Below are positions 90 to 47,684 of a stretch of 64,000 bases of DNA, piece after piece; position 1 is the first letter of the stretch; the number at the start of each line of letters is the position of its first letter. The position numbers were made by a program, and so were the translations under genes. The notes beneath the pieces were generated by a model. The model made no database searches. It saw only the letters and a list, made by a program, of their open reading frames with translations, and had not been told where the DNA came from. Origin of the DNA: Squalus acanthias (lineage: Eukaryota); assembly GCA_030390025.1 (NCBI GenBank), contig CM059431.1:153018001-153082000 (forward strand), read 5' to 3'.

Positions 90-1455
90 CATGGTCCGTC
101 ACGCTGACATCACCACTGCATGAATGATTAATGTAGCTCTGGAGAGAGTAATGTTTAAAACAAATGGGTAGAGATCTGCACAAGAGAAAAGGTCGTGATA
201 GATATATGGTGATGAGGTATTGCATAGTGTTGGACTTAAGTAATCTAGCTCAAACAGAGGGGAGATTGTAGGTAAAGGGTTAATCAGACTGTCCTAAAAT
301 CTGATAATGTTATACTGTATTGGTTTATCTTTCTATTGTAATAATGTTAATCTTTAGCCTATCCCTGTTAAGTAGGGAAGAATAAGTCAATTTAAAGTAC
401 CAGTGGACTGCTGGGCCAGAGCTGAGCATGCAGCAGTGTTCACTCTCAGGATGAAGCAGTTAGAGATTTAATTAAACACATGCCATTGCAATCTGATTCA
501 AACATTTCAGAGAATTTTAATAACTTGCTACAATGTTGGAAGACAGTTAGGTCTACAAAGGAAAATATCGGGGCATACATCATCATTTTAATTGGTAGAA
601 TGATCCAAAATCAAACGCAGACATATAATTAACGGTTTCACTTTGTAGAATTGAAATGTTGTGGATCAAGAGTGAAGCTATCGATAAGGTATCGACTCTG
701 ATGTAATTACGCTTGTAAGCCCACCAGATAAAGAGATCGTTAAGTAAGGAAAACTGTCCTTTTAATCAAGGATAAGTCGAAGCAAGTCTCCTGATACGCA
801 GTTACATTTTAACGTTCATATAGTTATATAATGCAACATTGTGTGGATGTTCACGGAGAGGGAGTTTGACAATTGTAATACAACTGGCTGTTTGTACTGA
901 GTATTCCGATTCGTGAAAGCCTAAGATACTGAGCTCAGAAATGTAATAGGCACATTATCATTTAACTGGATTCAGACGACAACAGTTTTAAAATGCCGTC
1001 AGTCAGCGATGTATCTGCACCCAGCTACAATCGTGAGCGGGCGATGTGTAATCAAACACATCATCCAAATTCAACACATAAAGCAGAAAGCAAATGCATG
1101 CAAAAGTTAACCATTGCAAAATCGTGTCAAATTCAAATCCATATGTTTGAGATTATCGCCGCTGTTTCTAATTAAATAGTTGATTTGTTTTTCATGAGAC
1201 CCTCTATTTATAATTAAACTGATACCATTTCCCTGATATTGTCATCACATCTATTTCTAAATGAACCTTTGCTGTGTTCCCCTCAATTCCCATAGCCGTC
1301 AAACATGCCCGACGGCACGTCAGACAGCCAGCAGACACATGTTCCTCAAACACAGAGCGAGAGAGAGCAACCCTGACTGAAGCTCAGCGACAGACACAGG
1401 CTGTTGACTGACATCACACAGACTGCAGGCTGACGTCACAGAGCCTGACGTCACA
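90..1455 (+). repeat. Unclassified low-copy segment 'A', copy 1 of 4 (others: 7960-11780 -, 39610-41280 +, 45930-47680 -)
   Basis: tgtaatacaactggctgtttgtactgagtatt (~874-905) is the reverse complement of 8871-8902 and 46885-46916; gtcagcgatgtatctgcacccagctacaatcgtgag recurs at ~41104 (+), ~8338 (-) and ~46353 (-). Confidence 0.85.
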
Positions 1456-1487
1456 CTAGACCCTGCCTCAGTTATTACTGCACTAGA

Positions 1488-2160
1488 CATAAGAACATAA
1501 GAAATAAGAGCAGGAGTAGGCCATACGGCACCTCGAGCCTGCTCCGCCATTCAATAAGATCATGGCTGATCGTCGACCTCAACTCCACTTTCCCGTCCGA
1601 TCTCCGTATCCCTTGATTCCCCTAGAGTCCAATAAACTCTCTATTTCAGCCTTCACCGCCCTCTGGGGCAGAGAACTCCAAAGATTCATTACCATCTGAG
1701 TGAAGAAATTCATCCTCATCTCAGTCTTATATGGCCTAACCCTTATCCTTAGACGACGTCCCCTAGTTCTCACACTCCAGCCAGGGGAGGCAACCTCTCA
1801 GCATCTACCCTGTCAATCCCCTTCAGAATCTTGTATATTTCAATGAGATCACCTCTCATTCTTCTAAACTCCAGAGAGCATAGCCCCATTCTAAACAATA
1901 TCTCATCATAGGACAGCCCTCTCATCCCAGGTATCATTCTAGTGAACTATCGCTGCACAGCCTCCAAGGCAAGTATATCCTTCCTTAGATAAGGAGACCA
2001 AAACTATACAAAGTACTCCATGTGTGGTCTCACCAAGGCCCTGTACAATGAAGCAAGACTTCCTAACTGTTATTCTCCAACCCCCTTGCAATAAAATCCG
2101 ACATGCCATTTCCCTTCCTTTTTGCTTGCTGTACCTGCGTGCTAGCTTTCTGTGTTTCCT
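1488..2160 (-). mobile_element. 5'-truncated CR1 LINE (ORF2 C-terminal remnant plus 3' UTR)
   Basis: ORF 1579-1773 RTRGRRLRIR...KTEMRMNFFTQMVMNLWSSLP is a CR1 ORF2 C-terminus; (ttcttatg)n tail. Paralog at 45206-45900. Confidence 0.88.
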
Positions 2161-2162
2161 GC

Positions 2163-3540
2163 ACGACCCTGTCTCTGTTTATGTTGCACTAGGCCTGTCT
2201 CAGTTATAACTGCACTAGACCCTGTCTCTGTTTATATTACACTAGACCCTGTCTCAGTTATTACTGCACTAGACCCTGTCTCTGTTTATAGCACTCTAGA
2301 CCTAGTCTCAGTGATTACTGCATTAGACCCTGTCTCAGTATATAATATACGAGACCCTGCCTCTGTTTATAATACACTAGGCCCTGTCTCAATTATTACT
2401 GCTTAGACCCTGTCTCAGTATATATTTTACGAGACCCTGTCTCTGTTTATATTACACTAGACCCTGTCTCAGTTATTACTCCACCAGACCCTGTCTCTGT
2501 TTATATTGCACTCGACCCTGTCTCTGTTTATAGCACTATAGACCCTGTCTCATTGATTACAACACTAGACCCTCTCTCTGTTTATATTACACGAGGCCCT
2601 GTCTCTGTTTATATCACACTAGGCCCTGTCTCTGATTATATTACACTGGACCCTGTCTCAGTTATTACTGCACTAGACCCTGTCTCTGTTTATATTACAC
2701 TAGACCCTGTCTCTGTTTATATTACACCAGACCCTGTCTCTGTTTATATTACACTGGGCCCTGTCTCTGTTTATATTACACTGGGCCCTGTCTCTGTTTA
2801 TATTGCACTAGACGCTGCCTCACTTATTACTGAACTAGACCCTGTCTCTGTTTCTATTACACCAGACCATGTCTCTGTTTATATTACACTAGACCCTGTC
2901 TCTGTTTATATTACACCAGACCCTGTCCCTGTTTATATTACACTAGGCCCTGTCTCTGTTTATATTACACTAGACGCTGTCTCAGTTATTACTGCACGAG
3001 ACCAGGTCTCTGTTTATATTACACTAGACCCTGTCTCTGTTTATATTACACCAGACCCTGTCTCTGTTAATATTACACTGGGCCCTGTCTCTGTTTATAT
3101 TACACTGGGCCCTGTCTCTGTTTATATTGCACTAGACGCTGCCTCACTTATTACTGCACTAGACCCTGTCTCTGTTTCTATTACACCAGACCATGTCTCT
3201 GTTTATATTACACTAGACCCTGTCTCTGTTTATATTACACCAGACCCTGTCCCTGTTTATATTACACTAGGCCCTGTCTCTGTTTATATTACACTAGACG
3301 CTGTCTCAGTTATTACTGCACGAGACCAGGTCTCTGTTTATATTACACTAGACCCTGTCTCTGTTTCTATTACACCAGACCCTGTCTCTGTTTATATTAC
3401 ACTAGACCCTGTCTCTGTTTATATTACACCAGACCCTGTCCCTGTTTATATTACACTAGGCCCTGTCTCTGTTTATATTACACTAGACGCTGTCTCAGTT
3501 ATTACTGCACTAGACCAGGTCTCTGTTTATATTACACTTG
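2163..3540. repeat. 27-bp minisatellite (ctagaccctgtctctgtttatattaca)n
   Basis: Direct tandem units; 9-aa periodicity (LDPVSVYIT) in the ORF track. Confidence 0.95.
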
Positions 3541-3964
3541 GGCGCTCTACCTCAGTCAGGCTGTGTTTAATCAGCCCTCTCATTGTCAATTTGTGTTACA
3601 CTGAACAGTGCTGATCTCTTTACCCCGATACACGGGATCAGGGGTCATTTTAATGGGGTATAGTCAGCACAATCCTGATGAATGTGTTCCCTTGCTGTGA
3701 CACTATATTTATTAATACACACCTGGATCTCTCTCTCTATCTCTCTGTTGGTTTCTTTCTGTATTAGTCATTGTATTTGGACTCACCTTTATCTATCTCC
3801 CTCTGTTGGTGTCTCTCTGTATCAATCACTGTATTCACTGTCACATTTATCTATCTCTCTGTCGGTGTCTCTCTGTTTCACTCAATGTATTCAGTGACAC
3901 ATTTATCTATTTCCCTGTGGTGGTGTCTTTCTTTATCATTCACTTGATTCACTCAAAGATTTAT

Positions 3965-4381
3965 CAGGTACAGGAACATTGTTCAGATCTTTAAATAATG
4001 AGTACAGACAAGCACAGGGCTGATCCATCGTGGGGGGACTCACTCATCTGCACTGGTGCATTGTTCAGATCTTTAACCTATTAAAGCAGGCAGGCAATGG
4101 GCTGATCCACGGTGGGGGCCTCACTCACCTGTACAGGTATATTGCTCTGATCTTTCACCATTGAGTACAGATGAGCAATGGGCTGATCCACGGTGGGGGC
4201 CTCACTCACCTGTACAGGTACATTGCTCTGATCTTTAACCATTGAGTACAGATGAGCAATGGGCTGATTCACGGTGGGGGCCTCACTCACCTGTACAGGT
4301 GCATTGCTCTGATCTTTAACCATTGACTACAGATGTGCAATGGGCTGATCCACGGTGGGGGGCCTCACTCACCTGCACAGG
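3965..4381. repeat. 81-bp tandem repeat, about 5 copies
   Basis: tgagtacagatgagcaatgggctgatccacggtgggggcctcactcacctgtacagg... repeated; 27-aa period in ORF 4081-4323. Paralog at ~43820-44075. Confidence 0.9.
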
Positions 4382-4451
4382 CAAAATTCTCAGACTTTCC
4401 ATTCATTCAATCACTTCCTTTGTCCTTTTTCAGAACTCACTTTGTTTACTT

Positions 4452-4900
4452 TAACAACAGCAACAACTTATATTTATATTGCGCCTTTAACATAATAAAT
4501 CGTCCCAAGGCGCTTCACAGGAGTGTTATCAAAATAAATTGGACACCGAGCCATATAAGGAGATGCTAGGCCAGATGAACAAAAGCTTGGTCGAAGAGGT
4601 AGTTTTTAAGGAGCGTCTTAAAGGAGGAAAGGGAAGTGGAGAGGCAGAGAGATTTAGGGAGGGAATTCCACAGCTTCGGACCTAGGCGACTGAAGGCACG
4701 ACCGCCAGTCGCGGAGAATTTAAAATCGGGGATGTTCAAAAGGCCAGAATAGGCGGAGCACAGAGCGGATCATAGGGCTGGAGAAAATTACAGAGATAAG
4801 AATGGGCGAGGCCATGGAGGGATTTGAAAATAAGAATGAGAATTTAAAAATCGAAGCGATGCTTAACTGGGAGCCAATGTAGGTCAGCAAGCTCCAACCT
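4452..4900 (-). mobile_element. L2 LINE 3' fragment
   Basis: Reverse strand reads cctgtgaagcgccttgggacg...ggcgcaatataaatataagttgttg, the same L2-type 3' end as 9070-10143. Paralog at 43305-43748 (+). Confidence 0.8.
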
Positions 4901-5029
4901 GTTTTTTTCTGTTTCCTGTCTGGATTTTTAAACCTCTCTTTCTGATGATTTTCCCCCATTTGCTGTGATTTTTCTTTTGCTCTTTCTCCCCCTCTCCCCC
5001 GTTCCCTAAAGAATCTCCAGATTGCCCCA

Positions 5030-5695
5030 GGGCACAATTTCAAAACTTGCAGGTGACACAAAAGTAGGACGGATAGTTAACAGTGAGGAAGTAGGTGATA
5101 GACTTCAAGAGAACATGAACAGGCCGGTGGAATGGGCGGACACGTGGCAGATGAAATTTAACGCCGAAAATTGTGAAGTGAAACATTTTATTATAAAAAA
5201 CGAGGTGAGGCAATATAAACTAAAGGGTACAATTCTAAAGGGGCCGCATGAACAGAGAGACTTGGGTGTATATGTGCACAAATCGTTGCGCGTGGCAAGG
5301 CAGTTTGAGAAAGCACTAAAAAAGCATACGGGATCCTGGGTTTCATAAATAGAGGCATAGCGTACAAAAGCAAGGACGTTATGATGAACCTTTCTAAACA
5401 CTGGTTCGGCCTCAACTGGAGTATTGTTTCCAATTCTGGGCACGACACTGTAGGAAGGATGTGAAGGCCTCAGAGATGTTCAGAAAAGATTTACAAACAT
5501 GGTTCCAGAAATGAGGGACTTCAATTACGTGGATAGACTAGAGAAGCTGTGTTTGTTCAGGATCTGGAATGCACTACCTGAGAGGGTGGTGGAAGCAGTT
5601 TTAATCGTGACGTGCAATAGGGAATTGGATAAGTACCTGAAGGATAAGAAATGGCAGGACGCCATCTGTGCTGTAACCATTCTATGATTCAATGA
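5030..5695 (+). mobile_element. Degenerate CR1 LINE 3' fragment
   Basis: ISKLAGDTKVGRIVNSEE...WADTWQMKFNAENCEV...EQRDLGVYVHKSL is the CR1 RT C-terminal region. Paralog at 42228-43165 (-). Confidence 0.88.
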
Positions 5696-5719
5696 TTCCC
5701 CGTCCCCTGGTGACATCGT

Positions 5720-7960
5720 GCAGTCTGCAGGATGTATGACGTCATTTTGCAGTCTGTCTGACGTCAGTCTGCAGTCTGTGTGATTCTTTCTGCAGCCTGT
5801 AAGACGTCAGTTTGCAGTCTGTGTGACGTCAGTCTGCAGTCTGTGTGGTGGAATTCTGCAGTCAGTGTGGCGAATTCTACAGTCTGTGTGACTCTGTCTG
5901 CTGTCTGTGTGACGTCAGTCTGCAGTCTGTGTGACGTCAGTCTGCAGTCTGTGTGGCGGAATTCTGCAGTCAGTGTGGCGGAATTCTGCAGTCTGTGTGA
6001 CGGAATTCTGCAGTCTGTGTGACTCTGTCTGCTGGTCTGTTTGACGTCAGTCTGTAGTCTGTGTGACTCTGTCTGCAGTCTGTGTGACGTCAGTCTGCAG
6101 TCTGTGTGACCTTTCTGTAGCCTGTGAGACGTCAGTTTGCAGTCTGTGTGACGTCAGCCTGCATTCTGTGTGACGTCAGTCTGCAGTCTGTATGGTGGAA
6201 TTCTGCAGTCTGTGTGGCGGAATTCTGCAGTCTGTTTGACTCTGTCTGCGGTCTGTGTGATGCTGTCTGCAGTATGTGTGACGTCAGTTTGCAGTCTGTA
6301 TGAATTCAGGCTGTAGTCAGTGCGACTGTCTGCACTCTGAGTGACGTCACTCTACAATCTGTGTGACTCTGTCTACCGCCTGTGTGACGTCAGACTGCAG
6401 ACTGTGTGACTCTGTGTGCAGTCTGTGTGACGCTCTATGCAGTCTGTGAGACGTCAGTTTGCAGTCTGTGTGACGTCAGTCTGCAGTCTGTGTGACGTCA
6501 GTCTGCAGTCTTTGTGACGTCAGTCTGCAGTCTGTGTGGCGGAATTCTGCAGTCTGTGTGATTCTGTCTGCTTTTTGTGTGGCGACAGTCTTCAATCTGT
6601 GTGGTGGCATTCTGCAGTCTGTGTGGCACAATTCTGCAGTCCATTTCAGTATGTCTGCGGTCTGTGTGATGTCATTCTGCAGTCTGTGTGATGCAATTCT
6701 GTTGTCTGTGTGGCGGAATTCGGCAGTCTGTGTGACTCTGTCTACGTTCTGTGTGACGTCAGTCTGCAGTCTCTGTGGTGACATTCTGCAGTCTGTGTGG
6801 TGCAATTCTGCAATCCGTGAGACTCTGGCTGCGGTCTGTGTGATGTCAGCCTGCAGCCTGTAAGACGCAATTCTGCCGTCTGTGTGGCGGAATTCTGCAG
6901 TGTGTCTGACTCTGTCTGCGTTCTGTGTGACGTCAATCTGCAGTCTGTGTGACTCTGTCTGAAGTCTGTGCGACGCTTTCTGCAGTCTGTGTGACGTCAG
7001 TTTGCAGTCTGTGTGGTCGAATTCTGCAGTCTGTGAGGCGGAATTCTGCAGTCTGTGAAGCGCAATTCTGCAGTCCATGTGACTCTGTCTGCGGTCTGTG
7101 TGATGTCAGTCTGCAGTCTGTGTGACGCAATTCTGCAGTGTGGATGGCGGAATTCTGCAGTCTGTGTGACTCTGTCTGCGTTATGTGTGACGTCAGTCTG
7201 CAGTGTGTGTGACTCTGGCTGCAGTCTGTGTGACGCTTTCTGCAGTTTGTGTGACGTCAGTTTGCAGTCTATGTGAATCTGTCTGCAGTCTGTGCGACTG
7301 TCTGCAGTCTGTGTGAAGTCAGTCTACAATCAGTCTGACTCAGTCTACCGCTTGTGTGACGTTAGTCTACATTCTATGTGACGTCTGTATGCAATCTGTG
7401 TGACGACCGTCTGCAGTCTGTGTGACGTTTGTCTGCAGTCTGTGTTATTCTGTCTGCAGTCTGTTGGAATCTGTCTGCAGTGTGTGTCACTTTGTCTGCA
7501 GTCTGTGTCACACTGTCTCCATTTTATGTGATGTCAGTCTGCATTATATGTGACTCTGTCTGTAGTCTGTGTGACTTTGTCTGCCGTCTGTGTGACACTG
7601 TCTGCATTTTATGTGATGTCAATCTGCAGTATGTGTTCCTCTGTCTGCAGTCTGTTGGACTTCAGCTGCCGTCTATGAGACTCTGTCTGCAGTCTTTGTT
7701 ACTCTGTCTGCAGTCTGTGTGACTCTGACTGCAGCCTGTGTGACGTCTGTCTGCAGTATGTGTGGTATCAGTCTGCTGTTTGTGCGACTCTGCCTGCAGT
7801 CTGTATGACGTCAGTCTGGGTGACTTCAACTGCAGTCTGTGTGAGGTAAGTCTGAAGTCTTTTTTGACGTCAGTCCGTGCGACGTCAGTCTGCAGTCTGT
7901 GTTGAAGTCAGTATCGGTGACGTCAGTCTGCACTCTGTGTGACGTCAGGTTGTGTGTGTG
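5720..7960. repeat. 20-22-bp minisatellite (gcagtctgtgtgacgtcagtct)n, rich in TGACGTCA
   Basis: Tandem units with ctgcag/gaattc variants. Paralog at 41260-42210 in reverse orientation. Confidence 0.95.
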
Positions 7961-9069
7961 TCATTGAGCTTCAGTCAGCGTTAGTCTCTCTCCCTCTGTG
8001 TTTGAGGAACGTGTGTCTGCTGGCTGTCTGCTGCGGTCGGCCATGTTTCTGTGACGTATTTTCGGCCATGTTTGACGAATATGGGAATTGAGGGGAACGC
8101 AGCAAAGGTTTATTTAGAAATAGAGGAGATGAGAATATCAGGGACACAGAGCAACTTTTAAATTAGAAATAGGGGGACTCAAGGAAACCCAACAACTATC
8201 AAATTAGAAACAGGGCGAAGAAGCACATACATATGCGATTGAATTTGACACGGTAATGCTGTGGTTAACTTTTGCATGACTTTGCGTTGTATTTTACCTG
8301 TTTATATTGGATGATGTCATTGATTACACGGCGCCTTCTCACGATTGTAGCTGGGTGCAGATACATCGCTGACTGACGGAATTAAAACCCCAACCTGCTG
8401 CCTGACTCTTGGCATAAATAGTGTTCGTCGTCTAAAACTACTTAAATAAGAATCAACCTACTGCTCAGATCTACCAGCAACTCATCAGCAAGTCCCCAGA
8501 AGTTGGATGCGAGCCAGATTGGCAGAGCCGGGGCTCCGGTGAACTGAAAACAAATGGAGTTTGTTTGTTTTGAGAACGTCAGCATAAAGTGGAACGTGAA
8601 CGAGTGACGGGTAAAGGGGCACTAAATCACAAATAATATATGAACCCCACGGACGATTAAAGTACTCAGGCTATTGTTGGAGTAAAGTTTTCAATAAGGT
8701 TCTTGAAAATTGAGGTGAGGTGTCACAGGTTTATTGAGCACACGTTCTATGCAATAGTTCTTAAACATACGGTTAAAAGGTGCAAATTGCAGCCACACCT
8801 CATGATGGTTGCTTGGCGATTGAAACGTTTCACAGTTCTCAGCTCAGTATCTTAAGCTTTTAAGAATTAGAATACTCAGTACAAACAGCCAGTTGTATTA
8901 CAATTGTCTCACGCCCTCTCTGTAACATTCACACAAAGTTGCATCATATAAATATATGATAGTTAAAATGTAACTTCATATATGGTGACTTTCATCGACA
9001 TATCCTTAATCAATAAGGGTTGTTTTCCTTGCATAAAGATCTCTTTTTCTGTTGGGCTTCGAAGCGAAA

Positions 9070-10143
9070 TTCACTCTTCCCACTACCGCATCATTACCTC
9101 TGAGGAACCCCAAGGATCTATCCTTGACCCCCTCCTATTTCTACACTATATGCTGCCCCTTGGCGACATCATCCGAAAACACGGCGTCAGTTTCCACATG
9201 TACGCTGACGACACCCAGCTCTACCTCACCACCACTGCTCTCGAACCCTTCATTCGTCTTTAAATTGTCAAACTGTTTGTCCGACATCCAGTACTGGATG
9301 AGCAAAAATTTTCTCCACTTAAATATTGGGAAGACCGAAGCCATTGTTTTCAGTCCCGTCCGCAAACTCCGTTTCACAGTCACCGACTCCATCCCTCTCC
9401 GTAGCATTTGTCTGAGGCTGAAGACTGTTCGCAAACTTAGTGCCATATTTGACCGTGTATGAGCTTGCAGCCACATATCAGCGGCATAAAACCGCCTACT
9501 TCCACCTCCTTAACATTGCCCATTTCCGCCCCTGCCTCAGCTCATCCGATGCTGAAACCCTCATCCATGCCTTGGTTACTTCTAGATTTGACTATTCCAA
9601 CGCACTCCTGGCTGGCCTGCCACATTCTACCCCATATAAATTGTGGTCATCCAAAACTCTGCTGCACGTGTCCCAACTCGCACCAAGTCTCGTTCACCCA
9701 TCACCCCATGTGCTCGCTGACCTATATTGGCTCCCGGTTAAGCAACGCCTGATTTCAAAATATTCCTCCTTGTTTTCAAATCCCGCCGTGGTCTCGGCCC
9801 TCCCTATCACTGTAACCTCCCTTAGCCCACAAATCCCCAACATATCTGTGCTCCTCTAATTCTACCGACTTGAGAATCCCTGATTTTAATCGCTCAAACA
9901 TTGGTGTCTGTCCCTTCAGCTGCCCAGGCCCTATGCTCTGGAACTCGCTCCCTGAACCTCTCTGCATCTTTACCTCTCTTTCTTCCTTTATGATGCTCCT
10001 TGAGTCCTACCACTTTGACCAAGCTTAGGTTCATCTGCCCTAAATTTTTCTTATGTGGCTCGGTGACAACTTTTGGTCTTATAACAATCCTGTGAAGCAG
10101 TTTGGGACGTTTTACTACATTAAAGGCGCTATAAAAATTAAAT
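9070..10143 (+). mobile_element. L2 LINE, 5'-truncated (RT remnant); its tgt-repeat tail is displaced to 11036-11050 by a MITE
   Basis: [50 protein letters not shown] and ETLIHALVTSRFDYSNALLAGLP are L2-clade RT motifs. Partial paralog at 39908-40410 (-). Confidence 0.92.
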
Positions 10144-11033: not shown

Positions 11034-11959
11034 AATGTGTTGTTGTTGTTACCATGTAACTCCATATATGGAGACTTCCATCGACTAATCGTTGATCAAT
11101 AAGGATAGTTTTCCTTACTAAACAATCACGTTTTCTGGTGGGCTTACAAGCGTAATTCCCTTCGAGTCATTATCTTATCAATAGTTTCACTCTTGATCCA
11201 AAGCTTTTCAATTCTACCAAGGGAAACCATTAATTATAAATCTACCTTTATTTCTGGATCTTTCGTACCAATTAAAATGATGATGCATGCCCCGATGTTT
11301 CCGTTCTGGAACTAACTGTCTTCCCACATTGTAGCAAATGATTAAAGTTCTCTGAAATTTATGATTCAGTTTGCAATGACATGTGTTATATAAATCTCTT
11401 TTTGCTTCATCCTGGGACTGACCATTGCTGCAGGAACGGCCCTGGCACATCAGTCCACTGTTACTTTAAATAGACTTGTACATCTCTGCTTAACAGGCAA
11501 ACGCTAAATATTAACATTAAAGCTATAGAAAGATAAACCAATATAGTATAACATTAGCAAACTTTAGGACAGTCTGATTAACTCTTTCCTTGCAATACCC
11601 CACTGTTGGCGTTAGATTACTTAAGGCCAACACTAAAACTAAATCTCATAAGCATCCTATATCTATCTCGATCTATACTCTTCTGCAGATCTCAAACCAT
11701 TTGCATTCCACATTACGCTCTCCAGAGCCACATTAAGCATTTCTTTTCGTGCTGACTTCAGCGTGACTGAACATGTCTTGGACCCATTCTTAAGGGCATC
11801 TTCACCATCCACATCGCATGCTGGTAGCGCATTCACGGGCATAACCGCACTTCTGCATACACAGCGATAACCCAAGATCAGGCAGAGGTAGGCATCCAAT
11901 ACAAGCCATTCCTCCCCTTTCTGGCTATCTAAACAAAGCTGAGAGAGGGGGTAACCTCA

Positions 11960-34829: not shown

Positions 34830-37800
34830 CTTAGGAGATACAGCACAGAAACAGACCATTCGGCCCAACCAGTCCATGTCGGCGTTTAAGCTCCACTCGA
34901 GCCTCCTTTCATCTTTCCTCATCTAACTCTATCAGCACAAACCTATATTCCCTTCTCCCTCCTATTCTTATCTAGCCTCCCTTTAAATGTGTCTATACTG
35001 TTTGCTAGAACCACTCCCTGTGATAGCGAGGTTCACATCCTCACATTCTATTGGTAAGAACTTTCTTATGAATTCCGTATTTGATTTCATGCTGACTATT
35101 ATCTTATATTGACGGCCTTAAGTTTTGCTCTTCCCCACCAGTGGAAACATTCTCTCTGAGTCTACTCTATATCAAAACCTTTCTATAGTTTAAAGCCCTC
35201 TATTAGGTCACCTCTCAGCCTTCTCTTTTCAATAGAAAAGAGACTCCAGTCTGTTCATACTTCCTGATAGGTATATCCTCGCAATTCTTCTATCATCCTT
35301 GTAAATCTTTTTTGCACCCTCTCCAGTGCCTGTAAATCTCTTTAATAATATGGAGTCCAGCATTGTACACTGTTCTCCAAGTGTGGCATTACTAAGGTTA
35401 GATACAGGTTTAGCATAATTCTCTACTTTTCAATGATATCCTTCTTGAAATAAACCCTAGTGCTTGGTTTGCTTTTTTATGCGTCGCTAGCTTTTGTAAA
35501 CCAGTGTTGCTAGTTTCAGTGATTAGTGTATGTGTAATCCAAGATCGCTATGCTCTTCTATCCCATTTAGATTCTTATTTCCCAAGTAATATGTGACCTC
35601 CTTAATTTACTGACCAAAATGTAATACCTCCCATTTTTCTCTGTTGAAATTCATTTGCCAATTATATGCCCATTCTGCAAGTTTATTAATGTCTTCTTGT
35701 AATTTGTTGCAGTCCTCCTTAGTCCTGACTATCATAGCCCCCCACCCCCAGCAATTTGGTGACATCCGACAATTTCGAAATTGAGCTTTTGAATCCAAAG
35801 TCTAAATTGTTAACATAAATTATGAACAAACATGGTCCCATGCACTGAACATTGCGTGAATCCACTTTCCACATTCTGCCGCTCCGTATAGCTAATCTTT
35901 ACCCGTATTCTCTGATTTCTGTCTTGAAACCAGCTCGCTATCCATTCTGCTACTTGTCACCTGACTCTGCATTCTCTGACATTTTTCATTAGTCTGTCAT
36001 GTAGTTCTTTATCGAATACTTTTTTGAAATCTTGATAAATTACGTCAACTACTCAAAGCTTGTCTACGCTCTATGTTACCTCTTCAAAGAATTCAAATAG
36101 TGTGCTCAAACAAGACATTTTCTTTTGAAACGCATGCTGACTATTCATGATTAGATTTTTGCTCTTCGAGATGTTCTTCTATTTTTTCCTTTAGTAGGAA
36201 TTCCATTAATTTTCCTTCCACCGATGTTAAGCTGAATTAACTATAGTCCCACGGACATGTTCCATATCCCTAATTAAATATAGGTATTACGTTAGCAATC
36301 CACCAGTCCTTTTGCACTATACCTTTTTCGAACGAATTATTAAATATGTGTAATAGTGCCTCTTCTATCGCTTCCCTAGATTCCTTTAAAATGCGTGGAT
36401 GTAATTCGGCTGGAGCAGCGCATTTATCCTGTTTGAGTTTGATTAGTTGATCTAATATTTCTCCTTTTAAATTTTAAATGCGGTTATATCACTTCTAATC
36501 TCATCTTCCGATGTCACGTCTATCTGACCGTCTCCCTGGTAAAAACAGAAATAAAGTAAGTACATAATATTTCTGGCATTTCGCTATCGCTGCCTGTGAT
36601 TTAATACTGGCCGTTCCTTAACGGCCCTATTCCCATCTCGAATTTCCTTTTTTATTTATGTGCCTGCAGAATATTTTATTACATTGCTTTATGTTCCTTG
36701 CAAATTTAATCGCATAGTTCCCCTTTGCATTCCTACTTTGTTTGACTTCTCTCCTATCTCTTTGTATTCTTCCTTGCCATTATTTCACCTATTGTCCATT
36801 TTCTTAGTGTTCGCCTCTTTTTTTATCCTCATTTTTTTTTCTTTTGCCTTTATTCATCCATGGCGTCTCATTAGTGTTTAGCTTGTTCTTGATTTTTAGT
36901 GCAATATATTTTCCTGCACTCTGCTGAATACCGTTTTAAATGTTTCCCATTGTTGTTCTACATCATTGCTTGCCAATATCGCTGTACATTTTATTTTCCA
37001 AGTTCTATCCTCAGCCCCTCACATACGCATTTTCTCCAATCTGTTACCCTGATCGTCATCATACTTATGTCCTTCTCAATTATTAGCTGAAAGATTATTA
37101 TATTATGGTCACTGTTACCTAGATGCTGCCCCACTTTTTCTTCTCTTATCTGCTCTGGTTCATTCCCCATTACTCGATCCAGTCGCTAATCCTCCCTTTT
37201 CGGCTTCTTGCATATTGGGTTAGAAAGGAATCATTTGAACATAGTCGGAACTCCATTCCCCTATCCCCTTTACCTACCTCTTCTGCACAATTAATTTCGG
37301 GGCAGTTTAAATTTCCCATTAATATTATTTTTTTTACTAATTTCTCAAACTTTTTTTCCATATTTCTTCCTTCATCTCTTCTTCCAACATTAGTGGTCTA
37401 TAGACTACCTCTATTAGTGTGATTGAACCTTCATTATCTTTTATCTCTATCCACGTGGATTCTATTTCTGTCTAACTGATAACTCTGTCATGTTTTTACT
37501 GCCATTATGTTATCTCTAATAAGCAGAGCTAACCCACTTCCTATTTTGCCCACTTTTTCTTTTCTAAATATGTTATGCCCTGCAATGTTTAATTCCCAGT
37601 CCTGCTTTCTCTAGCCATGGCAAAGTATTCCCTACAATATCTGGTTCATCGCAACATAATATTGCCTCCAGTTCCCCTGTTTTGTTACGGACAGAGTGTG
37701 TATTGCTCTACAGAGAGTTAACTCATGTTTAATAGCAGTTCTTGTCACTTTATTTTCAACCATCTTTTTACTCCCTATTTCTATAACTCTATTTATTACC

Positions 37801-39300
37801 TAGAGTCTATGACCTCCCTTAGTTTGTTCCTTCCTATGTTCTGCGTTCCTGTTTCGTTTATATTTAGTCTGGTTTCATTTCTTATAGATCCCTTGTTACG
37901 AATGCTTCGTGCATTCAGATAAACAGCCTTTACTTTTAGCTTTCTTACCATTATCCCCTGCTTTCTCCTTGTTCGCTGATGCACTATTACCATTAAGCTC
38001 TCTGTTCTTTCCTGTCACACTCTGCTTATCTTTATCCAAATCGATACACTGCTCCAATGCCTTGAATTTTAGCTGAAAGGCCTATGAACAGTCAAGTTAT
38101 TAGATTCAACAGGATACATGTCCCAGCCCGGTTTAATGGAGCCCCTTCAATATGGAGCAGCTCACTCTTTCTCCAGTACTGGTGCCAGTGCCCATGAATC
38201 GAAACCTCTTCCTCCCAAACCATTCTTCCAGCAAAACATTTAACTCTCAGTTCTGCTTATCACGGTGGCAATTTGCACGTGGATGATGTCACAATCCAGA
38301 AATTATTACTTTTGAGGTCCTGCGATTTAAATTGTATGCTCGCTCCTCAAACTCAGCAGAACCTCATTCCCAGTTCGACGTATGTCTGTGGTTCCGACGT
38401 GGAATACGACCACTGGATCCTCCCCCTCCCACTACAAATGTTTCTCTAGCTGCGGGGAGATATCCTTAAACCTGACAGGCAACAGAGCCTTCGGAACACC
38501 GGTCCTGGCTGCAGAAAACAGTATTTCTCCCCCTGACTATGCTGTCCTCTACCACAACTACATTCATTTTCACTCGTCCCACTGGAATGGCCTCCTATGC
38601 CAAGGTGCCGTGGTCAGTTTGCTCATCCATACTGCAGACTTTGCCCTCATCCACACAGGCAGCAAGAACCTCATACCTGCTGAATACGTACTAAGCCGAG
38701 GCTCCTCCATCACTGCACCTGGGGTCACCTTACCTGCCTGAGTCGCAGTCACACCCTCCTGTTCCTGACCACTAACCAGGCCTGTTCCACTACCTAACCG
38801 AAGGGGTGTGACTGCCCCCTGGATCAAAGTGTCAAGGTAACTCTCCCCCGCCCTGATGCCTCGCAATGTCTGCACCTCGGTCTCCTGTTCAACAACTCTG
38901 AGAAGAAGTTCCTCGAGGTGCAGGCACTAAGTGCAAACGTGGTCATCAGGAATCGCGATTCTCGACACAAACATATCACCCGCACTGCCATCACTATATA
39001 ACCTCGTTTTAGTTATTTAATTAATTAATGTTTATGCATTCAATTAACTTAGCTCATAATTTAGTTTTTAAATACTTACTAAATCTAGTTCAAGTTATAG
39101 GTTGAACCCACTTCGCTGGCTGAGAGTAAAATAAACTGTAAAACTCACCAACCAATCACCTACCTGCTGTCCGGTGACGTCACTCCATGATAATTCGTTG
39201 TTGTTTTTGAATTTCCCGAATAAATATGCCGCTGCTGCTCAGGTCTGCCCCGCCCCAGGATCTTTCCTCCCGCTGCTTTTATGCCGCCGCTCCTCATCTT
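34830..39300 (-). mobile_element. Old, near-full-length degenerate CR1 LINE (paralog of 11960-15390, retains more ORF1/5' sequence)
   Basis: YLNARSIRNKG, ILMGNLNCPEIN, LAEWAYNWQMNFN; ESYLDTLIQGAVTPLR is an ORF1-like remnant. Confidence 0.88.
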
Positions 39301-39907
39301 GTTCAGATCCGCTTTCATGGTTATGTCCTTTCTGGTACTGAGCAATTAGAGGAATGTACTTGATAGCTTTGCCACTACAAGAAACATCGGAACCATGCAG
39401 AGGGAGATTCTATCCAAACATCGACAGAACCCCTACCCCCTCTCCCAGCTTTTTGTAGATAGCCAGAAATGGCAGGGATGGCTTGTATCGGATGCCTCCA
39501 GCTGCCTGATCTTGGGTTATCGCTGTGTGTGCTGAAGTGAAGTGTTGCCCGTGAATGCGAGACCAGCATGCGATGTGCATGATGAAGATTCCATGAAGAA
39601 TGGGTCCAAGACATGGCCAGTCACGCTTGAGTCAGCACTACAAGAAGTTCTCAATGTGGCTCTGGAGAGAGTAATGTGTAAAGCAAATGGGTAGATATCT
39701 GCAGAAGAGAATAGATCGAGATAGATATATGATGCTGATGAGATTTTTTTAGGTTTAGCCTTCAGTAATCTAATGCCAAAGGTGGGGTATTGTTAGGAAA
39801 TAGTTAATCAGACTGCCTAAAGTGTGCTAATGTTATACTGTATTGCTTTATCGTTCTATAGCTTTAATTTTAATATGTAGCCTCGGCCTGTTAAGCAGGG
39901 AAGGAGC

Positions 39908-40410
39908 AAAGGCATGGATGAGGGTTTCAGCAGCAGATGAGCTGAGGCAGGGCCGGAGACGGGCAATGTTATGGAGGTGGAAATAGGCGGTCTTATGCCG
40001 CTGATATGTGGTTGCAAGCTCATGCAGGGTCAAATATGACACGAAGGTTGCGAACAGTCTGTTTCAGCCTCAGACAGATGCTAGGGAGAGGGATGGAGTC
40101 GGTGACTATGGAACGGAGTTTGTGGAGGGGACTGAAGACAATGGCTTCGGTCTTCCCAATATTTAAGTGGAGACAATTTCTACTCATCCAGTACTGGATG
40201 TCGGACAAACAGTCTGACAATTTAGAGACGGTGGAGGGGACGAGAGAAAAGGTCGTGAGTTAGAGCTGGGTGTCGTCACCGTACATGTGGAAACTGACGC
40301 CGTGGTTTCGGATGGTGTCGCCAAGGGGCAGCAGAGAGTTGAGAAATAGGAGGGGAGCAAGAATACATCCTTCGGGGACCTCAGAGGAAATGATGCGGGA
40401 GTGGGAAGAG
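39908..40410 (-). mobile_element. L2 fragment (paralog of 9070-9575)
   Basis: LSDIQYWMSRNCLHLNIGKTEAIVFSP and AETLIHAF. Confidence 0.88.
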
Positions 40411-41259
40411 GGAATTTCGCTTCAAAGCCCACCCGACAAAGTGATCGTTACGCAAGGAAAACTACCCTTATTGATCAAGGATAAGACGATGAAAGTCTCC
40501 ATATATGGAGTTATATGTTAACTATCATAACGTTATATAATGCATCATTGTGTGGATGGTCACAGAGAGGGAGTGAGACAAATTGTAATCAAATTGGCTC
40601 TTTATACTGCGTATTCTGAGTCTTAAAAGCTTAAGATACTGAGCTGAGAACTGTAAGACGTTTCAATCGCCAAGCAACCATCATTAGGTATGGCTACAAC
40701 TTTCAACTGTATGTTTAAGTACTATTGCAAGGACTGTGTGCTCAATAAACCTATGACACCTCACATCAATTTTCAAAAACCTTATTGAAAACTTTCCTCT
40801 ATCAATAGCCTGAGTACTTTAATAGTCCGTGGTGTTCATATATAATTTGTGATAAAGTGCCCCCTTGACGCGTCACTCGTTCACGTTCCACTTTATGCTG
40901 ACCTTCTGAAAACAAACAAACTCCACTTGGTTTCAGGTCCCCGGAGCCCCTGCTCTGCAAATCCGGCTCGCATCCAGCTTCTGGGGAAGTGGTGATGAGT
41001 TGCTGGCGGATCTGAGAAGTAGGTTGATTATCATTTAAGTAGTTTTAGACGAACACTATTTATGCCAAGAGTCAGGCAGCAGGTTGGGGTTTTAATTCCG
41101 TCAGCCAGCGATGTATCTGCACCCAGCTACAATCGTGAGAAGGCGCCGTCAAACATGGCCGAAAGCACGTCACAGAAACATGGCCGACGGCACGTCAGAC
41201 AGCCAGCAAACACAGAGGGAGAGAGACTGACGCTGACTGAAGCTCAATGACACACAGAG

Positions 41260-42210
41260 CCTAGCGTCACACAGACTGCAGACTGACGTCACACAGACTG
41301 CAGACTGACCTCACAGAGACTGCAGACTGACGTCAAACAGACTGTCGTCATACAGATTGCAGACAGAGTCACACAGACTGCAGACAGAATCGCACAGGCT
41401 GCAGACTGATGTCACACAGACTGCAGAGTCACACAGACTGCAAACTGACGTCACATAAATGCAGACAGTGTGACACAGATTGCAGACAGAGTCACTCAGA
41501 CTGCAGACTTAAATCACACAGATGCCAGCATTACGTCACACTGACTGCAGACTGACGTCAAACAGTCTGCAGACAGACGCTTCACAGAATGTAGAATGAC
41601 GTCACACAGGCAGCAGGCAGTGTCACACGGATTGTAGAATGACGTCACAGAGACGGCAGACAGTCGCACAGACTGCAGACTGACTTCACACGGACTGCAA
41701 AATGACGTCACACACACTGCAGGAGCGTCACACAGACTGCAGACAGCGTCACACAGACAGCAGACTGATGTCACACAGAACACAGGCAGAGTCAAACAGA
41801 CTGCAGAATTACGTCACACTGACTGCAGACTGACGTCAAACAGAACGCAAACAGAGTCACGCAGACTGCAAAATTCCGCCACACAGACTGCAGAATTCCG
41901 CCACACAGACTGTATACTGACGTCGCACAGACTGCAGACTGACGTCACACAGACTGCAAACTGACGTCACACAGAATGCAGTTAGCGTCACACAGACTGC
42001 AGACAGAGTCACAACGACTGCAAAATTCCGCCATACTGACTGCAGAATTCCGCCACACAGACTGCAGACTGACGTCACACAGATTGCATACTGACGTCAC
42101 ACAGACTGCAGACTGACGTCATATAGACGACAGTCAGACGTCACACAGCGTGTAGAGTGACGTAAGACATACTGCAGATAAACGTCACACAAATTACAGA
42201 CTGCACGGTG
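41260..42210. repeat. TGACGTCA-rich 20-22-bp minisatellite, reverse orientation
   Basis: (agactgacgtcacacagactgc)n. Confidence 0.93.
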
Positions 42211-42227
42211 TCACCAGAGGACGGGGA

Positions 42228-43165
42228 ATCATAGAATCATGGAATGGTTACAGCAGAGAAGGAGTCTATTCGGCCTGTCGAGCCCCTGCCGGCTCTATGC
42301 AACAGCACTTCAGCGAGTCTCACTCCCCCGCACTTCCGCCGTAGCCCTGCAATTTCTTATCCTTCAGGTACTTATCCAATTTCCTTTTGCGCGTCATGAT
42401 TGAAACTGCTTCCACTACCCTCTCAGGCAGTGCATTCCAGATCCTAACCTCTTGCTGCGTAAAAAAATGTTCTTCCTCATGACGCCTTTTGTTTTTCTGG
42501 CAATCAACTTAAATCTGTGTCCTCTGGTTCTCCACCCTTCCGCCATTGGAAACAGTTTCTCTCTGCCTACTCCGTCTAGACGCCCCTACTCTGTCGAGCA
42601 CCTCTATCAAATCTCCTGTCAACCTTCTCTGCTCCAAGGAGAACAAAAACAGCGTCTTTAATCTATCCACATAACTGAAGTCACTCATCCAAGGAACCAT
42701 TTTTGTAAAAGTTTTCGGCACCCTCTCTAAGGCCTTCACATCCTTCCGACAGTGTTGTGCGCAGAATTGGACACAATACTCCAGTTGAGGCTGAACCAGT
42801 GTTTTATAAAGTTTCATCACAACTTCCTTGCTTTTGCACTCTATGCCTCTATTTATGAAGCCCAGGAGCCCGTATGCTTTTTTAACCACTTTCTCAAAAT
42901 GCCCTGCCACCCTCATCGATTTGTGTACATATGGGTCTTCTGTATTCATGCACCCCCTTTAGAATTGTGCCCTTTAGTTTATATGGTCTCACCTCGTTCT
43001 TCCGATCAAAATGTCTCACTTCACAATTTTCGACGTAAAATTTCATCTGCCACGTGTCATCCATTCCACCGGCCTGTCCATGTCCTCTTGAAGTCTATCA
43101 CTATCTTCCTCACTGTTGACTATACTTCCTAGATTTGTGTCACCTGCAAATTTTGAAATGGTGCT
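42228..43165 (-). mobile_element. CR1 LINE 3' fragment
   Basis: KKAYGLLGFINRGIECKSKEVVMKLYKTLVQPQLEYCVQF. Confidence 0.88.
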
Positions 43166-43304
43166 CTGGGGCAATCTGGGGATTGTTAAGGGAACGGGGG
43201 AGATAGGGAGAAAGAGCAAAAGAAAAATCACAGCAGATGGGGGAAAGTAATCGGAAAGGGAGGTTTAAAAAATCCAGAGAGGTAACAGAAAAAACAGGTT
43301 AGAG

Positions 43305-43748
43305 CTTGATGACCTACATTGGCTCCCATTTAAGCAACACCTCGATTTTAAAATTCTCAAACTTATTTTCAAATCCCTCCATGGCCTCGCCCCTCCTTAT
43401 CTCTGTAATCTTCTCCAGCTCTATTATCCCCTTAGGTCTCTGTGCTCCGCCTACTGTGGCCTTTTGAACATCCCCGATTTTAAATGCTCCGCCCCTGGCG
43501 GTCCTGCCTTTCAGTCGCCTAGGTCCGAAGCTGTGGAATTCCCTCCCTAAATCTCTCTGCATCTCCACTTCGCTTCCTACTTTAAGACGCTCCTTAAAAC
43601 TACATCTTCGACCACGAATGTGTGTATCTGCCCTAACATCTCCTTATTTGGCTCGGTGTCCAATTTACTTTTTTTTTCAAACTCCTGTGAAGCGCCTTGG
43701 GACGTTTTATTACGGTAAACGCGCTATATAAATATAAGTTGTTGTTGA
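43305..43748 (+). mobile_element. L2 LINE 3' fragment
   Basis: gacctacattggctccc...gtgaagcgccttgggacg...gcgctatataaatataagttgttgttg. Confidence 0.8.
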
Positions 43749-43819
43749 ACTAAAACAAAGAAACTTCTGAAAAAGAACAATGGAAGTTATGGAATGAAAG
43801 GAAAGTCTGAGAATTTTAT

Positions 43820-44075
43820 CTGTGCAGGTGAGTGAGGCCCCCCACGGTAGATCAGCCTATTGTTCATCTGTACTCAATAGTTGAAGATCTGAGCAATGTA
43901 CCTGTGCAGGTGAGTGATGCCCAAAATGTTGGATCAGCCGAATGCCCATCTTCTCTCAATGGTTAAAGATCTGAGCAATAAACCTGAGCAGGTGAGTGAG
44001 TCCCCCCACGGTGGATCAGCCCTCTGCTTGTCTGTACTTATCAGTTAAAGATCTGAGAAATGTACCTGCACCTGA
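43820..44075. repeat. 81-bp tandem repeat, reverse paralog, about 3 degenerate copies
   Basis: caggtgagtgag...ccacggtggatcagcc repeated. Confidence 0.8.
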
Positions 44076-44554
44076 TACATCTGTGAGTGAGGCAAGTGAA
44101 TAATAGAGAGAGACACCACCAAAGGGAAATAGATAAATGTGTCACTGAATACATTGAGCGAAACAGAGAGACAATGACAGAGAGAGAGAGATATATGTGA
44201 TACTGAATGCAGTGAAAGACACAGAAATACACCAACAAAGGGAGATAGATAAAGGTGACACTAAATACAGTGAGTGACATCGAGAGACAACAACAGAGGG
44301 AGATACATAAATGTGAGACCAAATACAATGAGTAATACAGGAAGAAACCAACAGAGAGAGAAAGATCCAGGTGTGTATTAATAAATATAGTGTCACGGGA
44401 AGGGAACAGTTTAACTAGGGTTGTGCTGACAATACCCCATTATAATGCCACCTTATCCTGTGTATCGGGGTAAAGGGATCAGCACTGTTCTGTGTAACAC
44501 AAATTGACAATGTGAGGGCTCATTAAACACAGCCTGACTGAGGTAGAGCGACCT

Positions 44555-45205
44555 TATGTAATATAAACAGAGACCTGTTGTGGTGCAGTAATAACTGAGA
44601 CAGAGCCAAGAATAATATAAACAGAGACATGGCCTAGTGTAATATAAACAGAGACAGGGTCTAGTGTAATATATACTGAGACAGGGTCAAATGCAGTAAT
44701 AACTGAAACAGGGCCGAGAGTAATATAAAAAGAGACAGGGTCCTGTGCAGTAATAACTGAGACAGGCTCCAGCGTGTTATAAACAGAGTAAGGTCTAGTG
44801 CAGTAATAACTGAGACAGGTTCCATAGTGTTATAAACAGAGACAGGGTCTAGTGCAGTAATAACTGAGACAGGCTCCAGAGTGTTATAAACAGAGACAGG
44901 GTCTAGTGCAGTAATAACTGAGACAGGCTCCAGAGTGTTATAAGCAGAGACAGAGTCTAGTGCAGTAATAACTGAGACAGGCTCCAGAGTGTTATAAACA
45001 GAGACAGGGTCTAGTGCAGTAATAACTGAGACAGGCTCCAGAGTGTTATAAACAGAGACAGGGTCTAGTGCAGTAATAACTGAGACAGGCTCCAGAGTGT
45101 TATAAACAGAGATAGGGTCTAGTGCGGTAATAACTGAGACAGGTTCTGGTGTAATATAAAAAGAGGCAGGTTCTAGTGCAGTTATAACTGAGACAGGCCT
45201 AGTGC
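44555..45205. repeat. 27-bp minisatellite with a 54-bp dimer structure, reverse orientation
   Basis: Alternating LEPVSVITA / LDPVSVYNT units in ORF 44661-45260. Confidence 0.93.
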
Positions 45206-45900
45206 AAACACAGAAAGCTAGCACGCAGGCACAGCAAGCAAGAAGGAAGCCAAATGGCATGTTGGTCTTTACTGCAAGGGGTTTGGGGAATAAGATTAAG
45301 GAAGTCTTGCTACAATTGTACAGGGCCTTGGTGAGACCACACCTGGAGTACTGTGCACAGTTTGGTCTCCTTATCTAAGGAAGGATATACATGCCTTGGA
45401 GGCGGTGCAACGAATGTTCACTAGATTGATATCTGGGATGAGAGGGCGGTCCTATGATGAGAGATTGTGCAGAATGGGCCTATCCTCTCTGGAGTTTAGA
45501 AGAATGAGAGGTCATCTCATTGAAACATACACGATTCTGAAGTGGCTTGACAGGGTAGTTGCTGAAAGGTTGTTTCCCCTGGCAGGAGTGTCTAGAACTA
45601 GGGGGCATGTCTCAGAATAAAGGGTAGGCTATTTAAGACTGAGATGAGGAGGAATTTCTTCACTCAGAGGGTAGGGAATATTTGGAATTCTCTGCCCCAG
45701 AGGGCTATGAATGCTGAGTCTTTGAACATATTCAAGGCTGAGATAGATAGATTTTTGGACTCTTGGGGATTCAAGCGATATGGAGATCGGGCAGGAAAGT
45801 GGAGTTGAGGTCGACGATCAGCCATGATCTTATTGAATGGCGGAGCAGGCTCGAGTGGCCGTATGGCCTACTCCTGCTCTTATTTCTTATGTTCTTATGT
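45206..45900 (+). mobile_element. CR1 LINE 3' fragment
   Basis: LEAVQRMFTRLISGMRGRSYDERL...RRMRGHLIETY; tail ttcttatgttcttatg. Confidence 0.9.
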
Positions 45901-47684
45901 CTAGTGCAGTAATAACTGAGGCAGGGTCTAGTGTGACGTCAGTCTGTGTGACGTCAGCCTGCAGTCTGTGTGATGTCAGTCAACAGCCTGTGTGTGTCCC
46001 TGAGCTTCAGTCAGGGTTGCTCTCTCTCGCTCTGTGTTTGAGGAACGTGTGTCTGCTGGTTGTCTGACGTGCCGTCGGGCATATTTAACGGCTATGGGAA
46101 TTGAGGGGAACACAGCAAATATTTATTTAGAAATAGATGTGATGAGAATATCAGGGACACATGGTAACTATTTAATTATAAATATAGGGACTCAAGGAAA
46201 CACAACCACTATTTAATTAGAAAGAGGGGCGAGGAATCACAACTATATTGATTTGAATTTGTCACGGTAATGCAATGGTTAACTTTTGCATGCCTTTGCT
46301 TTCTACTTTATCTGTTGAATTTGGATGATGTGGTTGATTACACATCTTCTGTTCACGATTCTAGCTGGGTGCAGATACATCGCTGACTGACGGCATTAAA
46401 ACCTGTGCCTGCTGCCTGACCCTTGGCTTAAATACTGTTGGTCGTCTGAATCTAGTTAAAAGAGAATGTGCCTATTGCACAAAACTGCCCGCAACTCATC
46501 GTCACTTCCCCTTAGAAGCTGGATGCGGGCCGGATAGCAGAGCCTGGGCTCCCCGGGGACCTTAAACCATGTGGAGTTTGTTTGTTTGGGGAACGTCAGC
46601 ATAAAGTGGAATGTGAGTTACGGGTAAAGAGGGCATTTAATCACAGTTAATAAATAAAGCCCATTGAAAATTGAAGTACTAAGGCTGTTGTTAGAGTAAA
46701 CTTTTCAATAAAGTTCTTGAAACTTGGACTGAGATTTCATAGGTTTATTGAGCCCACAGTATGTGCAATAGTACTTAAACATACACGTAAAATGTAGCAC
46801 TTACAACCACAGCTGATGATGGTTGGTTAGGGATTGAGATGTCTTAAATTTCTGAGCTCAGTATCCAGGCTTTCACGAATCGGAATACTCAGTACAAACA
46901 GCCAGTTGTATTACATTGGTCCCACTGCCTCTCCGTGACCATCCACACAATATTGCATTATGTAGCTACATGAAAGTTAAACTGTAACTCCATATAAGGA
47001 GACTTTCATCGACTTATCCTTGATCAATAAGGTCAGTTTTCCTGACTTAACGATCTCCTTGTCTGGTGGGCTTACAAGCGTAATTACCTCAGAGCCGTTA
47101 CCTTATCGATAGTTTCACTCGTGATCCAAACATTTCAATTCTACCAAGTGAAACCGTTAATTATAAGTCTGCCTTAGTTTTTGGATCATTCTGCCAATTA
47201 AAATGATGATGTATGCCCCGATATTATCCTTTGTAGATCTAACTGTCTTCCAACATTGTAACAAATTATTAAAGTTCTCTGAAATTTTTGAATCAGTTTG
47301 CAATGGCATGTGTTTAATTAAATCTCTAATTGCTGCATCCTGAGACTGACCATTGCTGCAGGGGAATTTTAAATGACTTATACTTCTAACTAAACAGGAA
47401 CAGGCTAAAGATTAACATTACTACAATAGAGAGATAAACCAATACAGTATAATATTAGCAGACTTTAGTACAGTCTGATTAACCCTTTCCTACAATCTCC
47501 CCTCCGTTTGCGCTAGATTACTTAAGACCAAATCTAAGCAATATCACATCAGCATCATATATCTATCACAATCTTTACTCTTCTGCAGATCTCTACCCAT
47601 TTGTTTTACACATTACTCTCTCCAGAGCCACATTAATCATTTCATGTAGTGGTGATGTCACCGTGACTGATATGTCTTGAATAA

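Follow-up and report, generated by a model that had tools for sequence, protein, structure and literature searches.

How did two closely similar receptor genes come to lie beside each other in mirror orientation, and has each of them been kept in working order since? The question is raised by a 64,000-nucleotide window of the Squalus acanthias genome (assembly GCA_030390025.1, contig CM059431.1, positions 153,018,001 to 153,082,000), which a preliminary description had presented as a diverged palindrome with a receptor gene in each arm. The mirror-image duplication in the window is real and old, measures at least 47 kb and belongs to a shark-type genome, and the comparison of its arms supports an old inverted duplication as the source of the gene pair. 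We place a probability of about 0.55 on the joint reading that this was a one-step inverted segmental duplication, produced by a template switch, and that the left gene copy is now decaying.

The preliminary description held that the landmarks of one arm recur in mirrored order and on the opposite strand in the other, and this is borne out by self-BLAST of the window, which yields a continuous anti-diagonal. A single collinear chain, in which 95-21181 is mirrored by 47670-31541, is recovered both from the unmasked sequence and after masking of the tandem arrays. The unique parts of the arms and the mirrored block pairs of the masked comparison are as follows:

95..21181, minus strand: left arm, unique part; its outer end passes the window edge, with a SINE-like (short interspersed nuclear element) insertion at 1-88
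31541..47670, plus strand: right arm, unique part; a young CR1 piece comes next, at 47695-48019
95-946, mirrored by 47670-46844
942-2146, mirrored by 46479-45217
4404-5558, mirrored by 43796-42641
8328-9582, mirrored by 41149-39900
11483-11953, mirrored by 39901-39434
11951-16062, mirrored by 38292-34149
16849-18190, mirrored by 34120-32778
20330-21181, mirrored by 32433-31541

Each of the unique anti-diagonal blocks has an E value between 0 and 6e-16, and the locus has the collinear reverse-complement homology of more than 1 kb of unique sequence that defines an inverted segmental duplication. Minisatellites of 27, 58, 81 and 22 bp sit between the unique blocks and are likewise mirrored. When the unique blocks and mirrored minisatellites were entered by hand, all 14 proved strictly monotonic in mirrored order. 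In the left arm (21,087 bp) they account for 76% of the length, and in the right arm (16,130 bp) for 87%. As a control, the window was reversed without being complemented; its self-BLAST gave 48 matches, and the 19 listed all lie inside the 22-bp minisatellite. The earlier figure of 48 kb is a lower bound, since what ends the match on the outside is young transposable element (TE) insertions and the edge of the window. On the left it stops at 95, where it meets the SINE-like insertion (1-88) and then the window edge, and on the right it stops at 47670, ahead of the young CR1. The TE family names used here (CR1, Penelope-like, SINE-like and Harbinger-like) are our own presumptive assignments, except where Pfam RVT_1 matches. 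The largest block common to the arms, an old LINE-like (long interspersed nuclear element) block, shows a strong mirrored purine/pyrimidine skew at 12000-16000 and 34000-38000.

The arms had also been called old on the strength of arm-specific insertions and deletions, and these are genuine (e.g. 16063-16848, 18191-18690, 9583-11482 and 38293-39433). Contigs from public sequencing runs, labelled here by run, display the insertion-free form at 16072-16837 (X1 and X3, with almost the same joint in X9) and at 18190-18710 (X1 and X7), which is consistent with insertion into the left arm at both places; no RNA run was among those listed, the best of the DNA runs shares 0.38 of words with the window, and the runs may derive from another species. 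The contigs across 16000-18900 are short, mix paralogues and do not confirm the left copy. Over 10,378 gap-free aligned sites, the non-coding identity of the arms is 88.5% (Kimura two-parameter distance 0.125), with 83 indel events, and 400-bp windows vary between 84% and 95% identity without a trend toward the centre. Coding identity is 93.5%. Gene conversion in the coding sequence was sought as a long identical tract and was not found, as the longest identical run is 78 nt (P=0.24), while the non-coding blocks are mildly heterogeneous in identity (P=0.008).

Primate and mouse sex-chromosome palindromes likewise have large inverted arms with gene pairs, but they are kept more than 99% identical through conversion. 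Neither the non-coding nor the coding identity approaches this value here and no conversion tract is seen in the coding sequence. Judged by these comparisons, the arms bear no sign of ongoing conversion, and the structure appears to be the fossil of an event rather than a maintained palindrome. We give no absolute age: at 7e-10 per generation, the rate for the epaulette shark in the accessible part of PMC10587355, the divergence would translate into ~9e7 generations, which seems too old, and this rate is uncalibrated for the lineage.

The mirror extends inward from the unique arms as a 26-bp satellite, whose units are exclusively on the plus strand up to 22725 and exclusively on the minus strand from 23494, with the flip of orientation falling between these two positions. 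A spacer of minisatellite and TEs had been described at 21-32 kb; repeats and TEs are indeed present, but most of this interval consists of the satellite arrays that belong to the two receptor cassettes themselves. Its parts are:

21187..22725, plus strand: left array of the 26-bp satellite, 48 units with 78-83% identity to the consensus, interrupted by a LINE 3' end at 21887-22131
22726..23493, minus strand: symmetry axis, a 768-bp, single-copy 5' piece of an old LINE, truncated at 22726 against the left satellite
23494..31528, minus strand: right 26-bp satellite array in the opposite orientation, 125 units, 74% identical to the consensus at the distal edge and 86-89% elsewhere
24270-25288: LINE inserted in the right array
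25582-25951: Penelope-like element inserted in the right array
26616-29958: LINE with nested CR1 inserted in the right array

The axis segment has no mirrored partner at arm-level identity, leaving a single-copy spacer of the type expected at a fold-back axis. Its identity to the piece of the same LINE family at 24270 is 72%, vs 88.5% between the arms (P=2e-20), and its identity to a third copy is 82% (127 sites), while the piece at 24270 and the third copy are 86% identical (517 sites). Because of its 72% identity to the neighbour and 82% to the third copy, the axis LINE is not half of a mirrored pair and seems older than the duplication; it looks like a single-copy element that predates the event, on an age comparison that covers few sites. 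Two candidate landmarks within the centre were accordingly set aside. The LINE 5' pieces at 22726-23484 and 24270-25288 were ruled out as a mirrored pair by their 72% identity, and the LINE 3' ends at 21887-22131 and 26616-26875 (89%) were ruled out because they have separate apparent target-site duplications and lie in a different register. No shared unit-by-unit register was detected between the two satellite arrays (P=0.97 vs shuffles). The simplest reading would place the junction at 22725/22726, the cut end of the LINE. Apart from its role at the axis, the 26-bp satellite hosts at least four separate retroelement insertions (21887-22131, 24270-25288, 25582-25951 and 26616-29958) plus the nested CR1, and the insertion at 26616-29958 has an apparent target-site duplication of 33 bp.

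What kind of event could have produced this arrangement? In the reading that we prefer, a receptor cassette consisting of the 26-bp satellite, a promoter region, a two-exon G protein-coupled receptor (GPCR) gene and at least 16 kb of downstream flank would have been copied beside itself in mirror orientation. This would have taken a single step, in which a replication template switch joined the satellite to the old LINE at 22725/22726, with a second switch presumably located beyond the window edge. A one-step origin is favoured because the single-copy spacer of at least 768 bp fits the range of 766-70,466 bp given for human inverted duplications in the accessible text of PMC3907307. From orientation frequencies that are independent of age, the part of PMC3194840 available to us also concludes that most inverted animal paralogue pairs arise inverted in one step. 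Two points weigh against a template switch. Microhomology at the axis junction, suggestive by eye, was rejected after comparison with control windows, 45% of which match or beat its score; given the age of the junction and a LINE copy for reference that is only 82% identical, 2-8 bp of microhomology would escape this test. Moreover, with the outer junction beyond the window, a tandem duplication followed by an inversion fits as well. On that account, the cassette was first duplicated in tandem and was later inverted by breaks in the satellite of the first copy and in the LINE upstream of the second. The same axis junction would then be explained, including a left array that is truncated (48 vs 125 units), distally incomplete and abutting a cut LINE, as well as a right array whose degenerate distal edge is intact beside the LINE 5' end, all of it without any need for microhomology. 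The price is two events instead of one, plus a break near a unit boundary, and the survey of six animal genomes in PMC3194840, as far as its available text goes, found tandem duplication plus inversion insufficient to account for inverted pairs. We hold this route as a tentative possibility.

The two other explanations have a more difficult fit with the locus. Fold-back duplication had been proposed in the preliminary description, a route to which the chance-level microhomology lends no support and which tandem duplication with inversion equals in fit. In its classical form, with breakage-fusion-bridge cycles as in human inverted duplications beside terminal deletions, it would account for the right-sized single-copy spacer at the axis (PMC3907307, accessible text), but ordinary sequence with an ART gene continues to the right and microhomology is not enriched, which makes breakage-fusion-bridge unlikely for an old interstitial locus. 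It is about as improbable that the palindrome is an assembly artefact, in which two haplotypes or two distinct paralogous loci were wrongly connected, head to head, in the satellite. The centre, with 10 kb of satellite and TEs, is the sort of sequence in which such an error might occur, and the sequencing runs contain many related sequences. Two haplotypes are nevertheless excluded because the 11.5% arm divergence is ~50x the nucleotide diversity (pi) of 0.002 reported for one shark in the available portion of PMC10587355 and because old insertions are private to each arm. Furthermore, the orientation flips in a non-tandem LINE between degenerate units (74-83% to the consensus) and not within a homogeneous array.

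The gene pair can also be set beside known inverted duplicates. The share of head-to-head pairs among linked duplication events is 21% for human, 16% for mouse and 13% for zebrafish (PMC3194840, table 2, from the part available). Like those vertebrate pairs, the present genes are multi-exon paralogues located tens of kb apart and divergently oriented, with a synonymous divergence (dS) of ~0.09; unlike them, the whole flank is alignable as a palindrome and the axis lies at a satellite preceding the promoter. The locus resembles the human fold-back inverted duplications with disomic spacer (PMC3907307, likewise in part) in its inverted arms, short single-copy spacer and junction repeats, and differs from them in being interstitial, old and apparently fixed, with no evident terminal deletion and with microhomology at chance.

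The genes carried by the arms are equivalent in structure. Both have two exons (70 + 908 nt), a phase-1 intron and a product of 325 aa, with 39 aa differences between the copies, and both spliced frames of 978 nt are free of stops and frameshifts. The start codons, at 20803 (minus strand) and 31907 (plus strand), face away from each other as originally described. The gene features are:

20734..20803, minus strand: left exon 1, 70 nt, phase 1; donor TCG|GTTAAT, 5/9 consensus matches
17193..18100, minus strand: left exon 2, with T101P, V102A, F255N, T257K and N290K relative to the right copy
31907..31976, plus strand: right exon 1; donor TCG|GTAAGT, 7/9 consensus matches
32868..33775, plus strand: right exon 2; Pfam 7tm_1, E 1.8e-19
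20881..20886, minus strand: TATAAA, 78 nt upstream of the left ATG, a putative promoter element
31825..31830, plus strand: TCTAAA, at the equivalent place upstream of the right ATG

Each copy has the same layout of satellite, promoter region and receptor. A bidirectional-promoter gene pair has starts within about 1 kb of each other and a common promoter; here the ATGs are 11.1 kb apart and each has its own 380-bp copy of the upstream region. The proteins match the class A (rhodopsin-type) GPCR profile Pfam 7tm_1 with 70.7 and 53.8 bits (cut-off 30.5). Both have DRF at the D/ERY-like site of transmembrane helix 3 (TM3), and the NxxxY motif of TM7 reads NTCIY in the right copy and KTCIY in the left.

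These receptors had been introduced as GPR139-like, a name that is accurate as a family label and misleading as a statement of orthology. With exon 2 as the query, 1,721 relatives were obtained; identity is 49-71% for the best 120 of them, the closest listed being 71%, and 119 of the 120 are named from sharks or rays, mostly as 'probable GPR139' (NCBI and UniRef labels). In protein databases, this elasmobranch family counts dozens of members for each species. The matches to it are full-length and high-scoring, and at up to 71% identity and ~324 aa its members are much like the window proteins; the left copy departs from the family by breaking an invariant TM7 Asn. GPR139 orthologues are well conserved. 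Among solved structures, the top match is human GPR139 (PDB 9m42, 7vug; E 3.5e-8), with CXCR4 near (E 5.5e-7), and the class A fold motifs align, but a by-eye count gives only ~67 identities over 279 residues (~24%). The label is therefore not one of orthology, and agonism by Trp/Phe cannot be assumed for the window receptors. As judged from these matches, the pair belongs to a separate elasmobranch family, for which 'GPR139-like' is a database label. A tree with the 120 relatives groups the two window proteins as sisters (support 1.0), a status that holds against the sampled relatives, as the database has no close paralogue from the same genome. Among these 120, species-specific clades reach 10 members, as expected under birth-and-death turnover.

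Have both products been kept intact, as was claimed? The frames are open and constrained. Non-synonymous differences occupy 44 of 739 sites vs 11.5% in non-coding sequence (P=3e-7), while synonymous differences (20 of 236 sites) are not distinct from non-coding (P=0.15). In a simulation that scored both stops and indels as hits, in-frame indels included, the neutral survival of an open frame was 0.004 per lineage (0.16 for stops alone). These values suggest that purifying selection acted on both copies over much of their past, and the events that we envisage would be a long period of constraint on both, as in the birth-and-death evolution of a large family, after which the left copy acquired a weak donor and substitutions at conserved positions of TM3, TM6 and TM7. 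The left frame has neither stop nor frameshift; what sets it apart are its donor and a set of radical substitutions. Its donor, GTTAAT, no longer has the +3 purine or the +5 G, pairs with U1 at -2.8 kcal/mol (right donor, -9.3) and is equalled by 37.5% of 7,794 random GT sites, vs 0.7% for the right donor; left exon 1, if unspliced, runs into a stop after 24 codons. N290K replaces the Asn of the TM7 NPxxY-equivalent motif, which is N in 120/120 relatives, while T101P (TM3), V102A, A167T, F255N and T257K are each found in 0/120. Residues unseen among the 120 number seven in the left copy vs none in the right (sign test P=0.016), and in the tree the branch lengths are 0.075 and 0.048, respectively. 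These left-copy letters are derived because the right-type letter is present at the T101P site in all 12 contigs listed from three runs, and right-type letters occur in 22 of the 24 rows checked, among 40 of 280 listed (a list selected for differences, in which the N290K site was not one of the 40). From these sequence features, the left copy is likely decaying. As a separate observation on this one pair, the receptor with the coding and splice lesions also has the shorter and more degenerate satellite array, the other array being expanded and more uniform.

Several points nonetheless stand against decay confined to the left copy. The pairwise ratio of non-synonymous to synonymous divergence (dN/dS) is 0.69, with a 95% interval of 0.43-1.21, and the counts do not support a relaxation limited to the left; derived aa changes are even, at 20 left and 19 right; both copies depart from the family at five conserved positions; and the TATAAA retained on the left is TCTAAA on the right, meaning that the right copy may be impaired too. 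The left frame also remains open against the neutral expectation of 0.004, and changes of Asn7.49 can yield constitutive activity, not loss, as stated for glycoprotein-hormone receptors in the accessible part of PMC4516391. Some of these same points would suit two functional receptors, of which the left had acquired a new ligand or another way of signalling. Its changes concentrate in TM7 and around the extracellular end of TM6, it keeps TATAAA, its ~20 derived residues compare with 46 non-synonymous changes expected under full neutrality, and the highest dN (0.15) is found in codons 251-300. In these codons dS is raised as well (0.24), leaving no dN excess, and neither a donor without the +3 purine and +5 G nor a Pro in TM3 and Asn/Lys in TM6 that are absent from 120 relatives would be anticipated for such a receptor. 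Functional divergence is thus a somewhat doubtful possibility; it concerns the fate of the gene and is compatible with either origin.

The arms also record earlier and later events. Further features are:

83..11782: older inverted repeat lying within the left arm (83-1453 vs 11782-7903), ~81% identity, mirrored at 39605-47679
18877..20412: Penelope-like insertion in the left intron, with 619-bp inverted arms 96% identical and a GIY-YIG-like frame
32299..32550: short hairpin element of the same family as the left-intron Penelope-like element, at the same site of the right intron in the opposite orientation

In 515 four-way columns, the inner pairs of the nested repeat are 80-82% identical and the arm pairs 87-90%, and 36 of 39 informative sites group by arm symmetry; on account of these sites and the identity gap, the nested structure, which may be an inverted duplication or an element whose ends are long and inverted, predates the large palindrome. 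This nested repeat encloses four minisatellites in both arms. The two intron elements (18877-20412 and 32299-32550) are flanked by the same ATTTTAAGTTG duplication and differ in length, with a third copy at 25582-25951, which suggests either that one target was hit twice independently or that conversion and inversion both took place. No Pfam match was obtained for the left-intron element. Within the right-intron element, 32347-32543 forms a 197-bp hairpin that is 94% self-complementary and has CTGACGA...GAAA motifs, presumably resembling a hammerhead ribozyme core; Rfam at gathering scores gave no match, this hairpin included. A contig piece from run X3 (18737-18878) has 1 difference from the left intron vs 9 in the right arm, a hint that the contig's source organism has closer relatives of the left copy at other places. 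Beyond the matched arm, a single 294-aa open frame at 53470-54354 (minus strand) resembles an ordinary vertebrate ecto-ADP-ribosyltransferase, with a match to Pfam ART (E 1.8e-44) and a hydrophobic C-terminus. The region 48019-52000 is GC-rich, includes a 203-aa frame at 49005-49616 (minus strand) that has no Pfam or NCBIfam match, and is taken by us to be like a Harbinger-type element; an NCBIfam search of two TE-like frames returned nothing significant.

What does the locus mean for the family? It is an ordinary inverted paralogue pair, a known kind of gene-family turnover. The preliminary description went further and saw in it a route by which the family was amplified, a claim that one case cannot show. 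In its strongest form, repeated inverted duplication with breakpoints drawn to the oriented upstream 26-bp satellite would be a main engine of a very large shark-and-ray GPCR repertoire, an idea that we consider quite doubtful; were it true, the nested 81% inverted repeat in each arm would record an earlier round. The available text of a whale shark genome paper (PMC8455134) describes cartilaginous fishes as relatively poor in GPCRs, that of PMC13100897 has nothing on the 'probable GPR139' family, and a literature search of titles and abstracts found no description of its elasmobranch expansion, which supplements might list. The pair itself is clean and dated, with its axis mapped to less than 1 kb, and its left receptor is seemingly caught between open frame and pseudogene. 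Counts of open frames may consequently overstate the working receptor repertoire, and the locus has its wider value as an entry point to the elasmobranch 'probable GPR139' family.

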